From the NCBI GenBank assembly GCA_016177705.1, contig JACOUT010000005.1:94374-158373 (forward strand): a stretch of 64,000 nt of DNA, given 5' to 3'. This DNA is from Deltaproteobacteria bacterium. GTDB taxonomy: Bacteria; Myxococcota; UBA727; VGSZ01. The translations under genes and the position numbers were made by a program. The notes under the pieces were generated by a model. That model was not told the origin of the DNA. It was given only the letters and a program-made list of their open reading frames with translations, and did no database searches. Each line of letters begins with the position of its first letter. The stretch's first letter is position 1. Positions 4,282 through 37,031 of the stretch are shown piece by piece.

Positions 4282-5103
4282 ATGCAGAACTTGATGGGCG
4301 CGCTCGCCGAGCAGGTCGACTTCACGCGCACCATCATCGTGTTCGCGCTCATCATGGCGCGCATCATGGCCATCGTGGTGCTGGTGCCGTTCCTGGGCGG
4401 CAAGAACGCGCCCATGGAAGTGAAGATGGGCGTCGGCGTCACGCTCACCATGCTGCTGTGGCCGACGGTGCTGGCCAACCTCGACCCCGACGCCGGTCTG
4501 CCGCTCAACCCGCTCGGCTTCCTGCTGATGATGATGAAGGAGACCTTCGTCGGCCTGGTGATCGGCTTCGTCGCCTCCAAGGTGTTCTACATCGTCGAGA
4601 TCGCTGGCCAGTTGATCGACATCCTGCGCGGCGCCAACCAGATCCAGTTGCAGGTGCCCGAGATCGAGGAGCGCAGCTCCGCCTTCGGCTCGCTGCAGTT
4701 TCAGCTCTTGCTGGCGCTCTTCCTGGCGCTCGAGCTGCATCGGCCCTTTTTCGCGGCGTTGTTCGAGAGCTTCGTGGCCGTGCCCATCAACGACTTCCCG
4801 CACTTCCAGGCGGGCTTCGGCCCCTTCGTCGACTACACCGCGCGCATCACCGCCGACGTGCTCGTCATCGCCGTGTTGCTCGCCATGCCTACCGGCATCG
4901 TCACGCTCATCATCGAGACCGGCTTCGGCCTCATCAACCGCGTGTCGCCCCAGATCAACGCGTACTTCATGGCCATGCCCGCCAAGGTGCTCGGCGGCTG
5001 TCTGGTGTTCTTCCTCTCCATCGACCTGATCCTCGAACAGATGCTCGGGCACTCGGTGCGCATGCTCGAGCACGTCGACGCCGTCATCGAGCTGATGGAG
5101 TAG
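4282..5103 (+). CDS. sctT: type III secretion / flagellar export gate protein SctT (FliR family)
   Basis: The ATG lies just after the sctS stop. A polytopic ~273-aa protein with FliR-like segments (FALIMARIMAIVVLVPFLGG, FVGLVIGFVASKVFYIVEIAGQLIDI, VSPQINAYFMAMPAKVLGG). Confidence 0.85.
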   Translation: MQNLMGALAEQVDFTRTIIVFALIMARIMAIVVLVPFLGGKNAPMEVKMGVGVTLTMLLWPTVLANLDPDAGLPLNPLGFLLMMMKETFVGLVIGFVASKVFYIVEIAGQLIDILRGANQIQLQVPEIEERSSAFGSLQFQLLLALFLALELHRPFFAALFESFVAVPINDFPHFQAGFGPFVDYTARITADVLVIAVLLAMPTGIVTLIIETGFGLINRVSPQINAYFMAMPAKVLGGCLVFFLSIDLILEQMLGHSVRMLEHVDAVIELME

Positions 5104-5105
5104 CC

Positions 5106-5867
5106 CTACTTGAGCTGGAACAGCGTGGCGTCGAAGGCCATGTTGCGGTCGACCTGCGACACCGAGGTACGACGCACCAGCTTGTCGTCGACCCAGACCT
5201 CGACGGTCGACGGAAACCACACGCCGCCGATGGGCGAGCCCCAGCCGAGGTAGCGCACGTCGGTGCGCTGCAGGGCGTTGCCCTCGCCCTTCTGCACCAT
5301 CACGACGCGCGCGACCAACAGCGTGTCCTTGTCGAGCCACACTTGCGGCTTGTCCTTCTCCCAGGGCTTCGAGCCGATCAAATAGGCGATGCGGCCGTCG
5401 AAGCGCGCGAACGACACCACCTCGGGGCTGACGCCGAGCGTCTTGAGGTCGCGCAGCATGCGCTCGACCGCGCGATCGGCGTCGAGCGGAGGCGAGGCGG
5501 TGACCAGATCGAACAGCAGGTCGACCGGCGCTTTGCTGGTCTTGTCGGGCTGGCCGGGCTGCTTGAGCATGGTCTTGTCGTCGAGGCGCAGCTCGACCCG
5601 CGCGCCGTCTGGCAGCTCCGACTCGCGCCGCATGCTGCCGGGCGCCTGGTAGAGCAGGCGCTCGGCGAACGCCGGGCCGCGCGCGGCGCCGGCGGCGTCG
5701 AACAACTGCGTCTCGGCCTCCACCTGTAGCGTCTTGGTGCCGCGCTCGGTCTGGCGCTCCATCGACTTCTGCAACAGCAAGCGCGCCGGCGGGCGGTAGG
5801 CGCTCGCGGCGCCGGCAAGCGTAAGGGCGCCGAGCAGCGCGCACCCGACGACGGCACGCAGCTTCAC
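5106..5867 (-). CDS. secreted protein of unknown function (possibly a LolA/LppX-like fold)
   Basis: The N-terminal signal peptide is MKLRAVVGCALLGALTLAGAASA. The gene is convergent with sctT and no catalytic motif was recognised. Confidence 0.45.
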   Translation of the reverse strand: MKLRAVVGCALLGALTLAGAASAYRPPARLLLQKSMERQTERGTKTLQVEAETQLFDAAGAARGPAFAERLLYQAPGSMRRESELPDGARVELRLDDKTMLKQPGQPDKTSKAPVDLLFDLVTASPPLDADRAVERMLRDLKTLGVSPEVVSFARFDGRIAYLIGSKPWEKDKPQVWLDKDTLLVARVVMVQKGEGNALQRTDVRYLGWGSPIGGVWFPSTVEVWVDDKLVRRTSVSQVDRNMAFDATLFQLK

Positions 5868-6754
5868 GCTCGCTCCGCCTCGGCGATCAACTGCCGCATG
5901 AGCGCGACCGTGCCGTCCTTGAGCTCGGGCCTGCCGAGCGCTTCGAGCAGGTTGGCCTCGAGGAAGCCGAGCTTGTCGCCGGCGTCGACGCGCCGCCCGT
6001 CGACGATGACGCCCATCAGGCCTTGGCGCTCGCGCAGCACATCGAGCGCGTCGGTGAGCTGGATCTCGCCGCCCTTGCCCGGCTTGGTGGCCTCGAGGAT
6101 GGCCCAGATGTCGGGCGGCAAGACGTAGCGGCCGACCACGGCCTTGTCGGTCTTCTCGGTGCCCTTGGGCGGCTTCTCGACGAGCGCGCTGATGCGAAAG
6201 CGGTGCGGCCCCTCGCTCGCGCCCTCGGCGGCGCCGTACTTGTGGATCTCGTCCTTCGGCACCGTCATGAGCGCCACCTGGCCAAGCCCCGTCTCGGCGA
6301 ACGCGTCCATCAACTGGCCGATTCCCGGGCGCTTGTCGGGCGCGGTGCGGTAGAGGTCGTCGCCGAGCAAGACGGCGAAGGGCTCGTCCCGGATGACCGC
6401 CTTGGCCGACAGCACCGCGTGGCCGAGCCCGAGCGCGACCTTCTGGCGCACCGACGAGATCTGGCCGAGGCGCGAGATCTTGCGGAGCATCTCGGCCTCG
6501 GCGCTCTTGCCGCGCTTGTCGAGCGTGTCCTCGAGCTCGTAGCTGGTGTCGAAGTGATCCTCGATGGCGCTCTTGCCGCGCCCCTGGATCAAGACCACGT
6601 GCTCGATACCCGACGCGAACGCCTCCTCGACCACGTACTGCAACGTGGGCTTGTCGACGATCGGCAGCAGCTCCTTCGGCACCACCTTGGTGGCGGGAAG
6701 GAAACGGGTGCCGAGCCCCGCGACGGGGATGACGGCTTGCCGGACCCGGGCCAT
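5864..6754 (-). CDS. galU: UTP--glucose-1-phosphate uridylyltransferase
   Basis: N-terminus AVIPVAGLGTRFLPATKVVPKELLPIVDKP, later VLLGDD and EKP motifs, and a length of 296 aa together give a classic GalU. Confidence 0.9.
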   Translation of the reverse strand: MARVRQAVIPVAGLGTRFLPATKVVPKELLPIVDKPTLQYVVEEAFASGIEHVVLIQGRGKSAIEDHFDTSYELEDTLDKRGKSAEAEMLRKISRLGQISSVRQKVALGLGHAVLSAKAVIRDEPFAVLLGDDLYRTAPDKRPGIGQLMDAFAETGLGQVALMTVPKDEIHKYGAAEGASEGPHRFRISALVEKPPKGTEKTDKAVVGRYVLPPDIWAILEATKPGKGGEIQLTDALDVLRERQGLMGVIVDGRRVDAGDKLGFLEANLLEALGRPELKDGTVALMRQLIAEAERA

Positions 6755-20991: not shown

Positions 20992-23094
<2,103 letters not shown>

Positions 23095-23117
23095 GGCGTC
23101 CGAGGGCGTCGTGCGAG

Positions 23118-23280
23118 CTACAGCGGTTCCGGCGTGGGTTGATCGGGAAGGAGGCGCAGCAATCGTCGCCGAGCGCAAGGCGCGGCGGAGGGCCAGCCTT
23201 TCTGGCTGGACCGAGCACGCAACGCAGCGATCGGCGACGAGGGCAAGCCGAGGCGGTCAACCCACGCCGGAACCGCTGTA
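23118..23280. repeat. palindromic element: perfect 24-bp terminal inverted repeats (TACAGCGGTTCCGGCGTGGGTTGA / TCAACCCACGCCGGAACCGCTGTA) flanking 115 nt with inner hairpins
   Basis: Read directly from the sequence. The element lies between the uvrB stop (23094) and the next start (23329). An inner hairpin GGCCAGCC-TTTC-TGGCTGG sits near the centre. Confidence 0.85.
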
Positions 23281-23328
23281 AGTGCGTCGCGCCCGTCCGG
23301 TGGTAGGATGCCCCGCTAGAGGAACCCC

Positions 23329-24447
23329 ATGACCTCCCTGAATCGCCTGCTGCTGCTCTCGCTCGCCTGTCTCGTCGCCTTGCCGGCGCTCGCGCCCGCG
23401 GCCCACGCCGCGCCGGATCGCGAGCGCAACAAGAAGGCGCCGGTGGTGGCCATCTTCCCCTTCAAGGTGCTGAACAAGGACGACAAGTTCCAGCACCTGG
23501 GTGAGGGCGCGGCCGAGGCGATCATCAACAAGATCGTCAACGACAAGGCGCTGCGCATCGTCGAGGAGAGCCAGCTCGACAAGGCCATCAACGCCCTGGC
23601 GCGCAACCAGAGCGGCGCCTTCGAGGAGGAGAGCTACCTGACCATCGGCCAGATGGTCGACGCGCGCTACGTCGTCATCGGCAGCGTGCAGGTGGCGGGT
23701 GAGCAGGTGGCGTTGAACGGCCGCCTGCTCGAGGTGGAGACGCGCCAGTTGCTCGCGGCCGAGCGCGTAGTCAAGCCCTACAACGACGTGCTCGGCGGCT
23801 ACGACGAGCTGGCCGCGCGGCTGCTCTCCAAGATGACCTTCCACCTGGCGCAGCGCGTGGCGGGCGGCGACAGCGCCGACGAGATCGCCGTGCGCCAGCT
23901 GATCGAAGAGGCCAAGGCCTTCGACCCGATGTTCCCGCCCGGCACCGACGCGGGCGGCAAGCCGATCGGCAAAGACCCGGGCAAGGCACTCGCCATCTAC
24001 AACAAGGCGGTGCTGCGCGATCCCAAGAACGGCGTCGCGCAGTTGGCACTTGGGCATGCGCAGAGTCGCGCCAGCGCCACCTTGGCGTCGACCGACCCGA
24101 CGCGCGCGCAGAACGTGCTCAAAGACGCGGTCGAGCACCTGCGCACGGCCACCAAGATCGACGGCGGCAACCCCTTCGCCTGGACCGAGCTCGGCCGCTG
24201 CGAGGGGCGCCTGGGCAACCACTCGATGGCCAAGGTGGCGTTCCAACGCGCCATCGACATCGACAACAACTACGTGGCCGCGCACTACGGCATCGCCATC
24301 GCGCACCTCAACCTCGGCGAGCTGCCGGCCGCGCGCGCCGCCGCGCTCAAGGCCCAGCAGAGCGGCGAGGCCCGTGCCGGCGATCTGCTGGCCAACATCG
24401 AGCAGGCGATCGCCGCGCAAAAGAGCAAAGAGAACCCGACGAAGTGA
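23329..24447 (+). CDS. secreted protein with an FlgO/CsgG/LpoB-like N-terminal domain and C-terminal TPR repeats
   Basis: Signal peptide LLLLSLACLVALPALAPAAHA; VAIFPFKVLNKDD...YVVIGSV resembles the TolB-N/LpoB-like fold, and the C-terminal half is TPR-like. Confidence 0.55.
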   Translation: MTSLNRLLLLSLACLVALPALAPAAHAAPDRERNKKAPVVAIFPFKVLNKDDKFQHLGEGAAEAIINKIVNDKALRIVEESQLDKAINALARNQSGAFEEESYLTIGQMVDARYVVIGSVQVAGEQVALNGRLLEVETRQLLAAERVVKPYNDVLGGYDELAARLLSKMTFHLAQRVAGGDSADEIAVRQLIEEAKAFDPMFPPGTDAGGKPIGKDPGKALAIYNKAVLRDPKNGVAQLALGHAQSRASATLASTDPTRAQNVLKDAVEHLRTATKIDGGNPFAWTELGRCEGRLGNHSMAKVAFQRAIDIDNNYVAAHYGIAIAHLNLGELPAARAAALKAQQSGEARAGDLLANIEQAIAAQKSKENPTK

Positions 24448-25487: not shown

Positions 25488-25551
25488 TGGGCGTCACGCG
25501 AAGGTTGGCGCCTTCTTTGCGCCTCCGCGCCCGGCGTGCCACAACCGGGGC

Positions 25552-26019
25552 ATGGCGGTCGACGTCGCCTCGCTCAAGAAGGTCGGGCTCTTCGAGAGCC
25601 TCTTGCCCGAGCACCTGAAGCTCGTGGCCGGCATCGTCGAGGAGCGCACCTTCCCGCCCAGCACCAAGATCTTCGGCGACGGCGACGCGGCCGATCGCTT
25701 CTATTTCATCGTGCAGGGCAAGGTGCGCGTGTCCAAGCAGATCCCCGGCGTGGGCGAGGAGGCGCTCGCCATCCTCGAACCCGGCGACTACTTCGGCGAG
25801 ATGGCGCTGATCGACGAGTCGCCGCGCTCGGCCGACGCCATCACCAACACCACGGTGGTGCTCGGTAGCATCGCCAAGGCGACCTTCGAGGATCTCTTGT
25901 TCATGAACAAGGATCTCGCCTACGACATGCTGTGGACGTTCGTGCGCACGCTGTCGTCGCGCCTGCGCGAGACCAACGAGAAGATGCGCGCTTTCCTGGT
26001 GCTCGCCGGCAAGTTCTGA
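25552..26019 (+). CDS. cyclic nucleotide-binding domain protein
   Basis: The cNMP-binding signature GDYFGEMALID...RSADA is present in a 155-aa protein. Confidence 0.8.
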   Translation: MAVDVASLKKVGLFESLLPEHLKLVAGIVEERTFPPSTKIFGDGDAADRFYFIVQGKVRVSKQIPGVGEEALAILEPGDYFGEMALIDESPRSADAITNTTVVLGSIAKATFEDLLFMNKDLAYDMLWTFVRTLSSRLRETNEKMRAFLVLAGKF

Positions 26020-26039
26020 AGACTCAGCAGGCGGAGTCT

Positions 26040-26370
26040 GGGGCTTGTTGTCCCGCCTTCGTGCGGGGGTCGCTGCTCTCGCGAGAGCAGAGGGCCGTGC
26101 TGCCGCGACCGCCCCCACCCCTGCCCCTCCCCTGCGGGGAGGGCCGTGCAGAGATGATCGGCCTTGACGTTGCTAGCGGCGCATATCGGAGCGCAGAGCC
26201 CGGCACGGCCCTCCCCGCAGGGGAGGGATCCAGGGTGGGGGCGTTCGAGTCTGGCAGTGGCGCCGTTGTTGGCGCGCCCCTGCGCACTTCGCTCGTCGGC
26301 GTCGCAACAAGGAGCTGCCGCCTGCTCTCGCGAGAGCAGCGACCGTTCATGGGGCGGGACGACAAGCCCC
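26040..26370. repeat. compound palindromic element (~330 bp): two inverted ~120-nt arms, each carrying the same sub-hairpins
   Basis: Arms are GGGGCTTGTYGTCCCGCC..GTCGCTGCTCTCGCGAGAGCAG..CGCCCCCACCCYTG..CCCTCCCCTGCGGGGAGGGCCGTGC on the left, with the reverse complement on the right. The right arm has an ~80-nt insertion. Each arm holds a perfect 20-nt self-palindrome (GCTGCTCTCGCGAGAGCAGC) and an 8-bp GC hairpin. Confidence 0.85.
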
Positions 26371-26421
26371 AGCTCCCTCATCTTGGTCCCTTCTCAACCG
26401 TTTCGGCGATTGAACGGATCG

Positions 26422-27291
26422 TCAGCCCTTGAGCGCCCCGGACTTCGGCCGGGCGGCGACGTTGGGCGTCGGGCGGCCCTTGGGCGCGTCCGCCGCCGGC
26501 ACCGGGCGCCCGCTCTTCTTGGCGCGGTCGATGCGGAACTGCTCGCCCACCTGCTTGCGGTCGCCGACGGCGAAGAACGAGTCGTGCGCGCCCTGCATCT
26601 CCTCGATGATGTGCGTGGTCACGTCGCGCAGGATGGCGCCGGCCGGGTCGAGCACCTCGCGGTCGGTGACGAAGTTCTTGGTCTTCTTCACCTTGGGATC
26701 CGCGGCCGCGCGCACCACGGTCAAGTACACGGCCAAAGCCTGCGCGCTCTTGTACGTCTGGATCCCGAGCTGAAACTTGAGATCGCGCTTCGCCGAGAGG
26801 AAGGTCGCGAAGTCGATACCGAGATCCTGCAAGAGCTCGTTGTCCCCGATCACCTTCACGAGATCACGATGTCCGAGCACGACGTTGAGCTGAGCGATGC
26901 GCGGGTCCTTGCAGAGGGCGTCGAGGCGCGGCCTCGGCAGCGAAGCTATCAGGTGGCCGATCACCTCGAACTCGCGCGGCGCGTCGCCGAAGCGGTTCTG
27001 CCACTCGTGGCGCGCGCGCGCCTCGATCGGTGTCACGGTGTGCTCGAGCGCCTTCCAGCGCTCGAGAAACTCGAGGTGTGGGCGCGGCCCCTCGTCCTCG
27101 ACGGGCGGCGCGCCCTTCCTCCTCTTCTCGGCCTCCGCCTTGGCGAGCGCCTCATCGGCCTCCTTGCGGTCGGTGCGCAGCTCCTCGGCCTTCTTCTCGT
27201 GGGTGCGCGCCTTGACCAGGGGCCCCGGATCCGGCTTCTTCAGCCGCAGCGACTCGGGCACCGTATGCGGCAGCTTCGAGGTAAACTTCAT
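26422..27291 (-). CDS. hypothetical protein with a Lys/Glu-rich N-terminus
   Basis: Long ORF with plausible composition and no recognised motif. Confidence 0.45.
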   Translation of the reverse strand: MKFTSKLPHTVPESLRLKKPDPGPLVKARTHEKKAEELRTDRKEADEALAKAEAEKRRKGAPPVEDEGPRPHLEFLERWKALEHTVTPIEARARHEWQNRFGDAPREFEVIGHLIASLPRPRLDALCKDPRIAQLNVVLGHRDLVKVIGDNELLQDLGIDFATFLSAKRDLKFQLGIQTYKSAQALAVYLTVVRAAADPKVKKTKNFVTDREVLDPAGAILRDVTTHIIEEMQGAHDSFFAVGDRKQVGEQFRIDRAKKSGRPVPAADAPKGRPTPNVAARPKSGALKG

Positions 27292-28275: not shown

Positions 28276-28995
28276 ATGACGTCGACGTCGTCGAACGCGC
28301 GCGCGCGCCAGATCGTGGATCTCCTGAAGGAGGTCCCACTGTTCGCCGGCATGACCGACGACGATCTGGCTCGGCTGAGCCTGCTCATCACCGAGAAGCA
28401 CTACCCGCGGGACACCGTGGTGGTGTCGGCCACCGACCCGGGTGACGCCCTCTACATCGTCGCCGAGGGCGAGGTGAAGGTCTCGCTCTGGTCCGACAAC
28501 GGGCGGGAGATCATCCTGTCCACGCTCGGGCCGGGCAGCTTCTTCGGCGAGATGAGCCTGGTCGACGGCGAGCCCCGCTCCGCCAACGTGGCCTGCCTGA
28601 CCGACGCGCTGCTGTTGCGCCTTGGCAGGAAGGAATTCCTGCAGGCGCTGCGCAGCTACCCCACCATCGCCATCAACGTCATGACCGAGGTGTGCGTCCG
28701 CCTGCGCCGCGCCGACGAGAGCATCGGCAACCTGGCGCTGCTCGACGTCTACGGCCGCGTCGCCCGCTTCCTGCTCGAGCGCTGCGAGGAGGAGGGCGAG
28801 GTGGTGCCCGAGGGTCACCTGATCAAGAAGATCCCGACGCAGCAGCACATCGCGAGCCGCATCGGCACCAGCCGCGAGACCGTCAGCCGCGCGCTCTCCG
28901 AGTTCCAGCGCCGCGGCTTCATCGAGCAGCGCGGCAAGGGCCTGCTGGTGCGCGAAGGGCTCGACCCCAAGGCGGTGTCCCGCTCGCGGAACTGA
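28276..28995 (+). CDS. Crp/Fnr family transcriptional regulator
   Basis: A cNMP-binding domain (FFGEMSLVDGEPRSANV) is followed by a C-terminal HTH (QQHIASRIGTSRETVSRALSEFQRRG). Confidence 0.85.
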   Translation: MTSTSSNARARQIVDLLKEVPLFAGMTDDDLARLSLLITEKHYPRDTVVVSATDPGDALYIVAEGEVKVSLWSDNGREIILSTLGPGSFFGEMSLVDGEPRSANVACLTDALLLRLGRKEFLQALRSYPTIAINVMTEVCVRLRRADESIGNLALLDVYGRVARFLLERCEEEGEVVPEGHLIKKIPTQQHIASRIGTSRETVSRALSEFQRRGFIEQRGKGLLVREGLDPKAVSRSRN

Positions 28996-30782: not shown

Positions 30783-33219
30783 TCATTCCGCGTCGCCCTC
30801 ACGAGCAGCCGGTTTGGCCGTCCGCAACACCGGCAGTGCAGTCTGCGGAACGAAGTCGAGGAACTTGCGGGCGGTCTCGAGCAGTCCGCGGCCCTCTACC
30901 GCCGCCAGCTCGCCGAAGTTGGCGGACAGCGCCGAAAGGAGCTGGGTGTCGCCCAGCCGCGTCAAGGCCGCGACCAGGTCGGGCGAGAAGGCACCTGCCT
31001 GCCGGACGGCCGCCTCGGTCTGCTCGCGCAGCCGGGCCAGCTCGAGCTCCTGCTCCCGCTGGCGCTCGAGCAGCGCCGCCTCGCTCTCGCGAGCTTGGAT
31101 GAGCAGGCGCTGCTCGCGCACCTCACCTTCGCGCGCGGCGTCGGCGATCTCGGAGGTGCGCTTCAGCTCGAGCAGCCGAGCGTGCTGCGCCTGCCGGTGC
31201 TCTTGCAGCACGAACACGCGTGCTTCCCGCTCCTCGTCGAGCTGCGCGCGCAGCAGCTTGGTTTGGTGCTCGGCCTGCGCGAGTTGGCGATCGATCTCCT
31301 CGAGGCGCCGCCGGTCGGCGAGCGCGCTCTCCTTCTCCGCTACCTCGATGGCGCTCTGAATGGCGTGGAGCTGCGCGCCGGCGAGCAGCGCCCCCACATC
31401 GTCGTCGGTGACCTCGAGCTCGTGCACCTCGACGTCGGTGACGCGCATGCCGTTCTCGGCGAACGACAGGCCCACGCGCGGCGCTTCGGCCTTCTTGCCG
31501 AGCACGGTGTCGCGAACGATCTCGGCGATCTCGGCGCGCAGCCGACGGATGGGGACCTGGCGCGCCGCTGCCTTGATGATCGACGCCGCGTGGTCGCACA
31601 ACAGCTTCACGTAGTTATCGACCGCGAACCAGCGCTCCTCGTCGCCTTCGAAGCTGACGCGGTACTTGACCGTCACCGCCGCCTCGACGAGGTCGCTTGA
31701 GACCACGTCGACCCGATCGCTCACCTGGTTGCCGGCGATCTGCAGGAACGCGGTGTGCAACGGGTGCTCGGTGCTCTTGGGTGTTCCCGTCGACAGGGTC
31801 AGCGCTTCGAGCGTCTCGCCCCACTCGAGCAGCGCGGTTCGCGGACCGCGCACCACGCGCCGAGCGCCGCTCTTGTCGACGATCTGTGCGGCGTAGCCCG
31901 ACCACACATCGACGGACACGACGCCGTCGTACTTGGTGTCGAGCGTGATGGTGCGCGGCGCGACGAAGCCGCGCGCGAACATGTTGACGTTCGACGGTGC
32001 CATCGCCTCTCGCGCGGCCGCGCTCGGACCCGGCATCGGCGGGGGCACGGCAATGTCCTTGCGCGGCGCCGCGACGGGCGGCGGCGCGGCTGCCGGCGCG
32101 CGTCGCAGCGCGCGGTTGACGGCCAGCGCCTCGTCGTTGGCGGGATAGAGGAGCGCGCACTCGCGGTCGGCGAGCACGCGCCGCGTGATCACCTCGCGCC
32201 GCGGATCGGGCAGGAACATCGTGGGGCCGCGCTTGAGCGCGATCTCGCCGCTCAACCGATTGAGCACGTAGCGCCCCTCGCCGGCCGGGATGGCGATGGC
32301 GTGGTGCACCTCGGTCATCTCGCTCTTGATGACGGCGTGCTCGTCGCGCGGGAAGTAGATCTTGTTCTTGCCGGTGAGGAACAGCTCCTCGCCCTCGGCG
32401 TGCGCCACGCCCTCCTCGTCGAGGTAGGGCGCGATCACCTTGACGTGCAGGCCGGTGATCTCGGAGAGCTCGATGGCGCGCTTCTTTCGTCCGCCTTCGT
32501 CGACGAAGCGCTGCTCCGGCTCGGGGAACACTACCGCCTCGCCGCGCAGGTAGCGCTTCTTGCCGTCGTCGCCCACCAGCACGCAGTACTCGAGGCGCTG
32601 CAAGGTCACTGCATCGCGCACGTACCTGCCGTCGTCGTCGGGCAGCACCTCGACGCCGTTCGGCGGCATGTAGAAGGAGACGTCGGTGCCGCGGATGACA
32701 CGCTTGTCCCCGATGTCGAAAGAGACGTCGTCGCCGACCACGTCGACGCCGAGCACGGCGGCGCGGTCCTTGTTGGCCTCGTCGGCGTCGAAGACGCGGA
32801 TCAACAGGTACTGGTTCATCTGCAGGCGGTGGCCCTCGACCACCTTGACCATCTGCCCGGGCCAGAGCGCGAAGCTGACCGGCCCCGGCAGGATGACCTT
32901 CTTGCCCACTTGCAGGTCGACGAGCCCGGAGGCGACGCCCGGCTTCGGGTGCATGCCGTCCCGCCCCGGGTTCTTCAGCACCATGTACCAGTTGGCCGGC
33001 GCGGTCGCGAACAGCTGCACGGCGGAGGCGAGCTCGGCGGCGGCGTCGAAGCGCTTGGTGAGCGCGTTGAAGATCACCGGCTGATCGGTCTGCGCCAGGC
33101 TGGTCTTGTTCGGGCCTACGTAGCAGTTGATGTGGCCCTTGGTGGTGTCGAGCACGTACGCGTATTCGTTGGGCGAGAGCACGAGCTCGCGCTCGCGCGG
33201 GGGACGGCGCTCTTCCATG
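30783..33219 (-). CDS. major vault protein (MVP) homologue
   Basis: ATG at 33219 with GGAGG 7 nt upstream. The N-terminal half holds MVP repeats collinear with eukaryotic MVP (YAYVLDTTKGHINCYVGPNKTSLAQTDQPVIF versus human [31 protein letters not shown], and ALWPGQMVKVVEG versus PLYPGEVLEKDI). The middle is a shoulder/SPFH-like region (FAVDNYVKLLCDHAASIIKAAARQV) and the C-terminus is a long coiled-coil cap-helix-like segment. Total length is 812 aa. Confidence 0.8.
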
Positions 33220-33336
33220 GTGTTCCTCCGGTGCGGAGGGTGCGTGAGCACGGCACGCGCCAACGTCAGGTCGCGTTCGGACGCGGCCGGCGCGCTGACC
33301 GGCGCGCCGTTTGGGTGCAGCCTGATCGAGCCTGGC

Positions 33337-35238
33337 TCAGCCGCCGGGGATGAACGGCAGGATCGCGCGCAGGTCTTCGTCCTGGAACGTAAGGCCGACA
33401 CCAATGAAGTAGTCGAGCCCGAAGCCGGTGCGCGGATCGTAGAGCTGCAAGCCACGCGGGCCCACGCTGTTGAGCGCGTCGTCGAGGCCCGCCGAGACGT
33501 ACAGGTGCGGGATCGGCTGCGCCTTCACCAAGGTACGCCAGCGCGGCAGGTAGAAGTCCGGCTGGGCGTCGGTGCTGAGCGTGTCGCGCGGACCGCGGAA
33601 GTCGAACACGTCGCTCCTCAGCTCCACGCGGTCGTCGAACAAGAAAAGGTTGGCGCCGACGCCGCCGGTGGTCTCGATGAGCCCTACGCGCAGCACCAGG
33701 AAGTCGAAGAAGCGCTTGGCGAACATGGCGCTGATACGCAGCTGGTTGTCCTCCTCGCGCACGCTCTCGCGGATCACGTTGCCGTCGACGTCGCGCTCGG
33801 TGTAGCGCTCGAGGCGCCCGCCGTCGTCGACCACCTCGAGCAGGTAGTACTTGTCGGGCTTCGGCTGCAGCCGCAGGCTGAGCGTGGTGGTGTTGGCGTC
33901 GCGGTTGACGTTGTACCAGCTGCCGATGTCGACGTGCGTCTCCATCGAGGTCAGGCTCGAGACGAAGTCGGCGGCGCCCGACACCGCGCTCTCCACCTTG
34001 TCGGCGATCTTCTCGTCGGTGAGCAGGCGGCCGACCGTGCCCTCGCCGCGCTCGACGCGCCCCATCACCTCCGAGAGCGACGCCAGCGACCGGTTCAGCT
34101 CCTCGATGGTGGTCTTGAGCGACTTGACGCCCTGGCCGAGCTCCTCCTCGTTGTCGCCGAGCACGCCCTTGAGTTGCTCCGTGACGACGGAGAGGTCGTC
34201 GGCGACCTTGCGCACGCTCGCCATGGTGGCGCGGATGTCGCCGTCACCCTCAGCGGTACCGCCGTCGGGGCCGACGCCGGCGCCAGGGCCCGAGCCGGTC
34301 ATGTCGGCGAGATCGGCGGTGATGCGCTGCACGTTCGCGACCAGCTTGTTGAAGTCGCTGTCGTCCTTCGCGATCTTGCCGTCGATGTCGCGCACCGCCT
34401 TCTCGACCGTGTTCACCGCCTTGCGCAGGTCGGTCATCACCAACTCGTAGATCTCGCCGATCGGCTTGGTGTCCTCGTCGCCGGCGATGAAGCGGTTCAG
34501 CTCCGCGGTGATGCCGTTGATGTTCGAGGCGATGCCGCCGATCTCTTGATCGATCTTGTGCGTGATGCTGGCGAGGTCGCCGATGATGCCCTCGGCCTTG
34601 CTGAGCAGGGCCTCGTTGCCGGTGGCCGAGCGGACGTTGATGACGCGCTCGCCTCCCTTGAACATGGTCTTGGACGGCCCCGGCTCGAGGAAGAGCGCGT
34701 TGGCGCCGAGCAGGCCGAGGCTGCCCTTCTTGACCCAGGAGTCGACCGGCACCGGCCACTGCTTGCTGACCGCGAAGTCGATGCGCGCCACCCGCACTCG
34801 TTCCTGCTTCGCCGCCTCGATGGCTTCGCGCACTCGCGCCTGGTCCCACTTTTCCTCGGCCACTTGCGCGCGCGTCGGTAGCGTGCCCCGCTTCTCGAGG
34901 TTGGCGATGACGCCGTCGAAGTCGTCGTGCGGCTTGACCGTCAGGTCGGCGCCGAGCGGGCGATCGACCCGCTGCAGCACGCGGGCCTCCAGGTCGACGA
35001 CGTACTCGCCGATCGGGACCTCGACCAGCGTGGCCTCGTTGATCTTGCCGGCCTTGAGGCCGGCGATGCTGATGATCGACTTGGCGTTGATGCCGGTCGC
35101 GTCGGTCAGGTACGCGTAGTAGTCGACGGAGTCGCGCGCGAAGCTGACCTTCTCCGACGACAGGTAGAAGATCACGCCGATCACCGTGCCGACGATGATG
35201 ACGAGACCGGCGCGGAACGCGTTGGCCGCGTCGCTCAC
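33337..35238 (-). CDS. MCE-family (MlaD-like) substrate-binding protein with a long coiled-coil extension
   Basis: An N-terminal TM segment precedes an MCE domain (IAGLKAGKINEATL...), followed by an extended helical region. The gene lies downstream of mlaF/mlaE homologues. Confidence 0.85.
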   Translation of the reverse strand: MSDAANAFRAGLVIIVGTVIGVIFYLSSEKVSFARDSVDYYAYLTDATGINAKSIISIAGLKAGKINEATLVEVPIGEYVVDLEARVLQRVDRPLGADLTVKPHDDFDGVIANLEKRGTLPTRAQVAEEKWDQARVREAIEAAKQERVRVARIDFAVSKQWPVPVDSWVKKGSLGLLGANALFLEPGPSKTMFKGGERVINVRSATGNEALLSKAEGIIGDLASITHKIDQEIGGIASNINGITAELNRFIAGDEDTKPIGEIYELVMTDLRKAVNTVEKAVRDIDGKIAKDDSDFNKLVANVQRITADLADMTGSGPGAGVGPDGGTAEGDGDIRATMASVRKVADDLSVVTEQLKGVLGDNEEELGQGVKSLKTTIEELNRSLASLSEVMGRVERGEGTVGRLLTDEKIADKVESAVSGAADFVSSLTSMETHVDIGSWYNVNRDANTTTLSLRLQPKPDKYYLLEVVDDGGRLERYTERDVDGNVIRESVREEDNQLRISAMFAKRFFDFLVLRVGLIETTGGVGANLFLFDDRVELRSDVFDFRGPRDTLSTDAQPDFYLPRWRTLVKAQPIPHLYVSAGLDDALNSVGPRGLQLYDPRTGFGLDYFIGVGLTFQDEDLRAILPFIPGG

Positions 35239-36074: not shown

Positions 36075-37031
36075 TCATTTGGGCAAGGCGTCGAAGCGAA
36101 TCCAGGAGTGGATCAGCGGGTCAAGGATCTCGGCCAACAGGTAGGTGCTGACCAGCACACACACGTTGGAGATGACGACGGTGCGGGTGGCGGCCTCGCC
36201 GACGCCGCGCGCGCCGCCCGAGGCGTGGAAGCCTTGGTACGACGCGATCAGCGCGATCTGCAGGCCGAAGATCGCGCCCTTGATCCAGCCTTCGTAGAAG
36301 TCGTCCGGGTCGAGCGCTTGCCAGGTCTCGTAGAAGAAGACACCGGGGTCCACACCTTCGCGCATCACCGCCATCACGTAGCAGCCGCCGTAGCCGGCAG
36401 CGCAAAAGACGATGGTGAGCAACGGCATCATCAACGTGGTGGCGATGGCGCGCGGCACCACCAGGTACTGCACCGGCTCCACCGCCAAGGTGGAGAGCGC
36501 GTCGATCTGCTCGGTGACGCGCATGGTGCCGAGCTCGGTCGCCATGCCCGAGCCCGAGCGCCCGGCGACCATCAGCCCCGTCAACACCGGGCCGAGCTCG
36601 CGCACCAGCCCGAGCATCGTGGTCGGTCCCACCAGCGCCTCGGCGCCGAAGCGCCGGAAGCCCTGCAGGCTCTGAAAGCCGAAGCTCAGCCCGGTGAACA
36701 GGCCCGTCAGCATGACGATGAACAGCGAGCCGAAGCCGACGTCGCGCATGTGGCGCGCGAGCTGCCCCCAACGAAAGGGGCGGCGCGGCAGCCAGAACGC
36801 GACGTCGAGGCAGAACAGCCCGAGGCTGCCGACCTCCTCGATGAAGGTCACCGCCGGGCGGCCGACGGCAACGACGGTGTCGACCGCCAGCGCGCGCGCG
36901 CGCGACGGCGCCGCCACGACCTGCGTCGGCTCGTTACCGCCGGTGCTTGGGCTCGTGCTCAACGCAGCGACGTTCCCGCGGCCCACCGCCATCGTCAAGA
37001 AGCGGGGCGACGTCAGACAACCCGTCGTCAA
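36075..37031 (-). CDS. ABC transporter permease (MlaE-like)
   Basis: Polytopic permease with MlaE-like segments (GFGSLFIVMLTGLFTGLSFGFQ; EQIDALSTLAVEPVQYLVVPR). The start could instead be at 36992. Confidence 0.8.
   Translation of the reverse strand: MTTGCLTSPRFLTMAVGRGNVAALSTSPSTGGNEPTQVVAAPSRARALAVDTVVAVGRPAVTFIEEVGSLGLFCLDVAFWLPRRPFRWGQLARHMRDVGFGSLFIVMLTGLFTGLSFGFQSLQGFRRFGAEALVGPTTMLGLVRELGPVLTGLMVAGRSGSGMATELGTMRVTEQIDALSTLAVEPVQYLVVPRAIATTLMMPLLTIVFCAAGYGGCYVMAVMREGVDPGVFFYETWQALDPDDFYEGWIKGAIFGLQIALIASYQGFHASGGARGVGEAATRTVVISNVCVLVSTYLLAEILDPLIHSWIRFDALPK

Follow-up and report, generated by a model that had tools for sequence, protein, structure and literature searches.

A lineage-specific compound palindrome between convergent genes as a probable copy of a mobile DNA element family in uncultured Myxococcota

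How does a long, multi-layered palindrome come to fill the spacer between two convergent bacterial genes, and is it a mobile repeat, a structure made in place, a regulatory array, an RNA gene or an error of assembly? The question is raised by a 64-kb stretch of contig JACOUT010000005.1 (the window, to which all coordinates refer unless a contig handle is given), which belongs to the metagenome-assembled genome (MAG) of a 'Deltaproteobacteria bacterium' (locus tag HYS27_10270). The original prediction, drawn from the letters of this locus, was a 330-bp compound palindromic element resembling a MITE (miniature inverted-repeat transposable element) or a repetitive extragenic palindromic (REP)-like mobile repeat. 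Our analysis indicates that the feature probably belongs, as one copy, to a family of mobile DNA elements in uncultured Myxococcota that are non-autonomous, form hairpins and were apparently undescribed before, and that the rival explanations are much less likely. Palindromic repeats, among them REPs, bacterial interspersed mosaic elements (BIMEs), ERIC and Correia elements and Rickettsia palindromic elements (RPEs), influence how transcription terminates, how stable mRNAs are, how genomes are rearranged and, now and then, the sequence of a protein. To our knowledge, nearly all families on record were described in cultured Proteobacteria and Firmicutes.

The palindrome is real and non-random. 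A long imperfect inverted repeat occupies positions 26038–26372, and each of its arms holds four ordered blocks. Outermost are block A (CTGGGGCTTGTTGTCCCGCC, 26038–26057) and its partner A′ (GGCGGGACGACAAGCCCCAG, 26353–26372), 20 nt long and 95% complementary, followed inwards by the 28-nt blocks B (26068–26095) and B′ (26317–26344; 93% complementary), the 15-nt CGCCCCCACCC tract of blocks C (26106–26120) and C′ (26233–26247; 93% complementary) and block D together with CCGTGC (CCCTCCCCTGCGGGGAGGGCCGTGC, 25 nt, 100% complementary, at 26125–26149 and 26203–26227), which encloses a central unpaired loop of 53 nt (26150–26202). The left block B region (26068–26100) reads GGTCG, then the self-palindrome CTGCTCTCGCGAGAGCAG at 26073–26090, then AGGGCCGTGC; block B′ carries the same palindrome at 26322–26339, so that there is one copy per arm, 249 bp apart. 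This perfect palindrome is 18 nt long, and the 20-nt version originally quoted as perfect matches only 19 of 20 positions in each arm. The left inner C–D unit (26106–26149, minus strand) consists of a GGGGTGGGGG tract, the hairpin CCCTCCCCTGCGGGGAGGG and CCGTGC and is of a 'GCAGGGG' subtype, and its right counterpart (26203–26247, plus strand) is of a 'ATCNAGGG' subtype. Shuffling excludes chance as the source of the block pairs (two or more matches of the block D and block A pairs arose in 0 of 100 shuffles). The compound inverted repeat is borne out where it had been predicted. Between blocks B and C the right arm has 74 nt and the left arm 15 nt, and the right-arm segment 26248–26316, which has small hairpins of its own, finds no partner in the left arm. 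The asymmetry had been read as an ~80-nt insertion in one arm; a deletion from the left arm appears the more likely source, because both arms of two sister elements described below carry ~60 nt at this place.

RNA folding of the region predicts a single long hairpin, in keeping with the very long hairpin that had been envisaged, at −265 kcal/mol on the plus strand (z = −14.2 versus shuffled sequence) and −255 kcal/mol on the minus strand (z = −9.9); the palindrome folded as single-stranded DNA gives z = −11.4. The element region lacks the codon-position GC periodicity of both neighbouring genes, a promoter scan at the locus found no promoter-like site, and a scan of 25500–27000 returned no terminator-like site, with no U-tract on either strand. 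Extreme predicted stability on both strands, together with some compensatory changes, is what a structured non-coding RNA gene might offer, be it a small RNA, a retron msr/msd or another ribonucleoprotein RNA. Rfam, searched with the whole window at gathering threshold and with 25900–26550 by E value, returned nothing above threshold (eukaryotic miRNA-hairpin models alone, far below their gathering scores), and the structured RNA once proposed for the locus gains no support from these scans. No reverse transcriptase is found among the ~54 window proteins and open reading frames (ORFs) scanned against Pfam, and no Rfam retron model matched, in agreement with the earlier setting aside of a retron. 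The two-strand symmetry of the structure, its presence/absence polymorphism and its in-frame intragenic copies (both below) fit DNA-level repeats better and, with no promoter-like site either, make an RNA gene very improbable.

The element is not an assembly artefact. Five Logan short-read contigs (L001–L005) from four sequencing runs reproduce the sequence identically, each arm beside its own gene, and these independent assemblies therefore recover two non-identical arms rather than the misjoined inverted duplication that had been named as a danger. All five contigs end inside the element (26097–26176), L003 and L004 overlap by only ~15 nt, and no single independent contig spans the whole, which is the point in favour of a misjoin in the MAG. 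A fold-back misassembly would yield identical arms; the arms seen here differ in their spacers, in length (74 versus 15 nt between blocks) and in unit subtype, and sister elements share the same architecture, which leaves a misjoin hardly credible. Such palindromes break up de Bruijn assemblies, and MAGs are likely to under-represent them.

Comparison of the locus among relatives shows the insertion to be polymorphic. As had been stated, the element lies between a cNMP-binding protein gene (25552–26019, plus strand; Pfam PF00027, E = 5.9e-22), whose stop codon abuts it, and a convergent gene for a 289-aa conserved hypothetical protein (26422–27291, minus strand; no Pfam match). For the latter protein there are 106 homologues, most of them in uncultured Myxococcota or 'Deltaproteobacteria', through which the orthologous convergent gene pair was located in relatives; identities below are those of the protein. 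The stop codons are 402 bp apart in the window (100% identity). The element is missing at the same site in six related lineages, five of which have spacers of 12–30 bp: the closest relative, L006 (95% identity, 15 bp, TGA-GGGCTTGACGGATCG-TCA), L041/L042 (90%, 28 bp), L020 (88%, 30 bp), L043 (88%, 21 bp) and L007 (82%, 12 bp). The sixth, L010–L019 (91%), has a spacer of 156 bp. In an alignment, the final 17 nt of the spacer in the window (GGCGATTGAACGGATCG, 26405–26421) match the L006 spacer GGGCTTGACGGATCG and are therefore native spacer common to the empty site; the extra DNA is 26020–26404 and begins where the TGA of the cNMP-binding gene ends. Its parts are the palindrome and two flanks, one purine-rich on the left (AGACTCAGCAGGCGGAGT, 18 nt, 26020–26037), which pairs imperfectly with the right flank in the folds, and one pyrimidine-rich on the right (CTCCCTCATCTTGGTCCCTTCTCAACCGTTTC, 32 nt, 26373–26404), likewise part of the DNA missing from L006. 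The size of 330 bp originally given holds for the palindrome itself; the inserted DNA, with both flanks, is larger. Across these alignments the element appears as a lineage-specific insertion of ~385 bp. The 156-bp spacer of L010–L019 has no unusual structure (z = −0.4) and shows a weak, doubtful local similarity to the element, namely an AGAC..CAGC start like that of the window insert together with a half-hairpin, TCCCTCCCCT.CGG; decay of a copy or an independent event may lie behind it. GGGCTTG, the sequence with which block A starts, also occurs in the L006 spacer. Reading this heptamer as a footprint of block A was rejected, as the alternative empty-site alignment needs two indel events versus one.

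Sister elements were found in a second genome. A block D scan of 185,579 species-representative genomes, among which the source genome is not included, returned one related match, on a contig of the MAG 'Deltaproteobacteria bacterium SJ783' (JADZDP010000057.1; L023). Its other matches (L021 and L031 from Acidobacteriota, L022 from Oscillospiraceae, L024 from Pseudonocardia, and L027) share the searched hairpin alone and were rejected as chance. Two full elements lie on L023, at ~4845–5237 and ~6202–6591, with the block order of the window element. From TTGGGGCTTG to CAAGCCCCA the two share ~96% identity; overall identity to the window element is only ~61%. The 18-mer CTGCTCTCGCGAGAGCAG is nevertheless intact in both arms of the first copy (L023a) and has one terminal mismatch per arm in the second (L023b). 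The L023 elements start with TTGGGGCTTGTTCTCCCGCC, and their differences from block A are compensated in the partner arm. A terminal inverted repeat, TGGGGCTTG...CAAGCCCCA, is common to the window element and the L023 copies, and the window flanks correspond to those in L023, (GAA)n/(CAG)n on the left and (CTT)n-type on the right. A solo C–D unit at L023:3980–4019 matches 26203–26242 of the window at 38 of 40 positions. An nhmmer profile built from the three full sequences recovers them with E values from 1e-130 (L023 copies) to 7e-81 (window element), aligning 26021–26409 of the window, and RNAalifold folds them into one shared long hairpin with 141 pairs, including 10 with double compensatory changes. 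In this consensus model, the long-hairpin geometry is kept through compensatory changes.

All three L023 pieces lie in-frame within one ORF of 1451 codons (L023:3190–7545, minus strand), which matches the NCBIfam model NF004225 for DnaE2, an error-prone DNA polymerase, at 1160.6 bits; the inserts are surplus both to the 1047 positions of this model and to Taq DnaE. Aligned with Taq DnaE, the product exceeds it by ~187 residues between Taq positions 633 and 647, by ~112 between 259 and 388 and by ~20 in the HHH domain. GC content at third codon positions (GC3) is ~0.93 in the native parts of dnaE2 and 0.4–0.7 exactly over the two large inserts. Variable triplet repeats border these inserts and appear in the protein as Ser runs and (GRKAEE)n or (ETAGQ)n. 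Of the six frames of L023a, only that used by dnaE2 has no stop codon; the two copies are spaced 1368 nt apart (3 x 456). Selection to keep the host ORF intact would leave such a pattern. The insert peptide matched nothing among 5.8 billion proteins, not even its host protein, which suggests that the database has no called protein for the L023 dnaE2, a gene that may have been annotated as a pseudogene.

The L023 copies also bear on a regulatory explanation, under which the two 18-bp palindromes, 249 bp apart, would be putative operators for a dimeric regulator that loops the DNA, for example a nearby protein of the Crp/cNMP family. The 18-bp dyad is kept while its surroundings diverge by ~40%, the cNMP-binding gene abuts the element and a Crp-like helix-turn-helix gene lies nearby at 28276–28995, all of which such an array would accommodate. 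Yet the palindromes also occur, as parts of the element, in dnaE2 of a second genome, with no such genes seen beside them, relatives with the same neighbour genes lack the site altogether, and a binding site for a mobilising enzyme explains the conservation equally well. An operator array is accordingly an unlikely account of the locus.

Parts of the element recur more widely than the whole. A metagenome scan recovered 11 loci, eight of them from dataset Ga0154820 (several at contig ends) and one from Ga0209341. Common to them is a unit of 49 nt, (C/T)GGCACGGCCCTCCCCnnnGGGGAGGG and then GCAGGGGTGGGG or ATCnAGGGTGGGG, which starts with (C/T)GGCACGG and is made up of a G/C tract, a hairpin with an 8-bp stem and CCGTGC. 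The two unit subtypes are both present in the window element, one per arm: the 'GCAGGGG' subtype of its left unit is also found in L025, L028, L029, L030, L033 and L035, and the 'ATCNAGGG' subtype of its right unit in L026, L032 and L034. Most of the Ga0154820 units are located downstream of genes. Inverted doublets, represented in the window by the 103-bp D–loop–D′ arrangement at 26125–26227, also occur in L033 and L034. At L034, a 415-bp compound palindrome (z = −7.7) again fills a spacer between convergent genes, with inner modules as in the window element and different outer arms, and L033 has a ~750-bp palindromic region with another small element nested inside. As the inner modules recur with other outer arms or nested elements, the family is, on this comparison of modules, a modular one, with a REPIN-like inner doublet (REPINs being inverted REP doublets) within variable outer palindromic layers. 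The small element nested in L033 (1566–1816) is ~250 bp long and lower in GC; it has terminal inverted repeats CTGCTCATTAGGGACATTTC...GAGATGTGATCAATGAGCAG and an apparent 8-bp target duplication, TCCCCGCA, and sits in the loop of a D-type hairpin, as a classical MITE nested in the palindrome family.

These copies also tell against a palindrome that arose in situ. By that account, inverted duplication or template switching would have produced a locus-specific structure, kept as a bidirectional terminator and never mobile; its being the single copy in the window, its location between convergent genes and the GGGCTTG of the L006 spacer, which could be seed or footprint of block A, would all be in order. 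Against this, dnaE2 of a second genome contains the ordered blocks twice, with the identical 18-mer, the inner unit is found in many unrelated contexts, and the arms differ in module subtype and spacers, unlike those of a recent fold-back duplication. The L023 and Ga0154820 copies go most of the way to refuting an in-situ origin, which we regard as improbable. Similar arms thus occur elsewhere, contrary to the single-copy outcome against which the original prediction had hedged. Its mobile repeat is supported by the site polymorphism, the L023 homologues and the multi-copy inner unit, whereas membership of the classical MITE or REP families is not shown.

Several results weigh against a mobile family. 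There is no other copy within the window, where the searches used three blocks (3 mismatches or fewer), GAGGGCCGTGC and the hairpin core (at most 1 mismatch), and the family profile. The ~54 window proteins and ORFs scanned include no transposase and no Y1/RAYT enzyme (RAYTs being REP-associated tyrosine transposases), just as they include no reverse transcriptase, and no parental insertion sequence (IS) with matching ends was found, the transposase scan having covered the 64-kb window. No direct repeat marks a target-site duplication at the junctions TTCTGA|AGACTC and CGTTTC|GGCGAT, a weak test that compares one filled/empty pair, the window and L006. The block D pattern has one match in the L023 genome, which is not REP-like in copy number; the match is single because both full elements carry a divergent hairpin outside the pattern. 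Finally, the outer-block homology rests on three full-length elements from two genomes, two of them near-duplicates. Wider searches also returned little. The six-frame concatenated translation of the window element had no match among the best 8000 candidates from 5.8 billion proteins, and a distant BLAST search of plasmids gave no match. The open +2 frame, compared with 1.84 billion representatives, had three matches, all to unrelated tandem-repeat proteins, and was set aside. Scans of viral contigs gave 0 matches for block B and 5 for block A, the latter by chance only. Our literature searches found no paper tying Myxococcota to MITEs or REPINs.

How does the element compare with known repeats? 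It mixes features of MITEs, of REPINs and BIMEs and, in genes, of RPEs, and fits no one class in full. With MITEs such as Correia/NEMIS, ERIC/IRU and RUP it shares a small size (~385 bp, within the limit of <~600 bp), the lack of coding capacity and terminal inverted repeats (A/A′, 20 nt, 95% complementary), as well as a presence that varies among close lineages, a mostly intergenic location and a long hairpin when co-transcribed. Its dispersed copies number two full and one partial in L023 and one in the 64-kb window, with presence/absence polymorphism shown, and occasional in-frame intragenic copies are known among MITEs (PMC10969869). Unlike MITEs, it has no target-site duplication in the one filled/empty pair and no parental IS with matching ends was found, and the whole element, not its ends only, is a nested palindrome of modules that are also found alone or recombined.

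The likeness to REPs, REPINs and BIMEs lies in the inner core, two short GC-rich hairpin units inverted about a loop, in the existence of solo units, in the BIME-like mosaic of two unit subtypes and in the favoured niche, gene 3′ ends and spacers between convergent genes, with no target duplication seen. By contrast, the unit is ~49 nt long, begins (C/T)GGCACGG and has no conserved 5′ GTAG (REPs are 20–40 nt); its copy number appears low here (one exact match in the L023 genome, at least eight in Ga0154820) against the hundreds of REPs; and the outer layers formed by blocks A and B are not known from REPINs, with no RAYT in the window. Because the 5′ GTAG, evidence of high copy number and a RAYT in the window are all lacking, REP membership is unsupported.

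RPEs are palindromic repeats that reside in-frame inside protein-coding genes (PMC10969869), as do the L023 copies in dnaE2, where the ORF is unbroken and ~110–190 non-native residues are added. The present elements are ~2.5 times longer than RPEs (~150 bp) and come from an unrelated phylum, the window copy is intergenic and one host gene, dnaE2, is documented; the likeness appears to be one of architecture and not of sequence, Rfam having given no match above threshold. With intrinsic (Rho-independent) terminators the element shares a GC-rich hairpin immediately 3′ of two convergent stop codons, but it has no U-tract and a stem about ten times longer, and relatives with the same genes do without it. 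A retron msr/msd would have a reverse transcriptase gene beside it; the ~54 window proteins and ORFs scanned include none, and Rfam gave no retron match.

Taking the locus as a copy of a mobile family, we suggest that it would have been copied into its site by an enzyme acting in trans and not encoded in the window. The 18-bp palindrome CTGCTCTCGCGAGAGCAG would be the best candidate for the binding or cleavage site of that enzyme. Because no target-site duplication was found, the mechanism would lean towards a single-strand/hairpin type (Y1/RAYT- or IS200/IS605-like) or a recombination type, and away from DDE cut-and-paste, and the nested architecture could have arisen if one insertion after another entered a palindrome centre. 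A hairpin of ~−260 kcal/mol should stand in the way of both convergent transcripts, and for this reason the element may, by analogy with REP/BIME, ERIC or Correia elements, secondarily act as a bidirectional, U-tract-less transcription barrier and 3′-end protector. A bolder proposal, which we advance tentatively and rate a little short of probable, is that the locus is the founding example of an undescribed modular family of nested palindromic mobile elements in Myxococcota, whose dyad CTGCTCTCGCGAGAGCAG would be the recognition site of the mobilising enzyme and whose in-frame residence in genes would be tolerated or selected.

Alone, the window locus is a fairly ordinary selfish repeat; it is the family that is noteworthy, especially the dyad and the double in-frame carriage in dnaE2. 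The locus contributes a clean pair of filled and empty sites and a module map for the family in uncultured Myxococcota, and the 18-bp dyad a concrete handle for finding the mobilising enzyme. Were the proposal true, selfish DNA in protein-coding genes of the RPE kind would extend to a high-GC free-living phylum. Hairpin DNA of ~390 bp is carried twice in-frame in an error-prone polymerase gene, and if this is general, annotation pipelines would mis-call or pseudogenise such genes.

The gene neighbourhood differs from that of relatives in a further respect. A Peptidase_M28 gene lies upstream of the cNMP-binding gene in L007 (1821–2804), L010 (3435–4490) and L043 (1483–2541). In L007 it sits between the cNMP-binding gene and a Pyr_redox_2 gene, where the window has only a 64-bp gap (25488–25551); judged from these relatives, the window neighbourhood has lost or never gained the gene.

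Other structures and genes of the window stand apart from the element. A second, unrelated long palindrome (23104–23295; fold z = −8.2), with 27-nt arms (TACAGCGGTTCCGGCGTGGGTTGATCG) that are 96% complementary, lies in the 235-bp spacer between uvrB (20992–23094) and a FlgO/TPR gene (23329–24447). Two inverted-repeat structures of ~245 bp, at 650–895 and 2287–2529, are 1.6 kb apart within ~2 kb that has no Pfam match, upstream of fliO; they have ~180-nt loops, z values of about −3 to −3.6 and similar termini, GGAGCGGG[A/T]GGC[A/G]GG...CCCGCTCC, and may represent another small repeat family. Three ORFs without Pfam match (33851–34450, 34556–35119 and 36412–36675) have GC contents of ~0.42–0.49 at first, ~0.65–0.67 at second and at least 0.95 at third codon positions and may be low-complexity or atypical proteins, or wrong-strand calls. 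An 890-aa protein encoded at 30783–33455 (minus strand) is a bacterial vault-like protein, with Vault_3 repeat domains and the shoulder domain of the major vault protein, and its gene is kept beside that for RNase PH in the relative L006.

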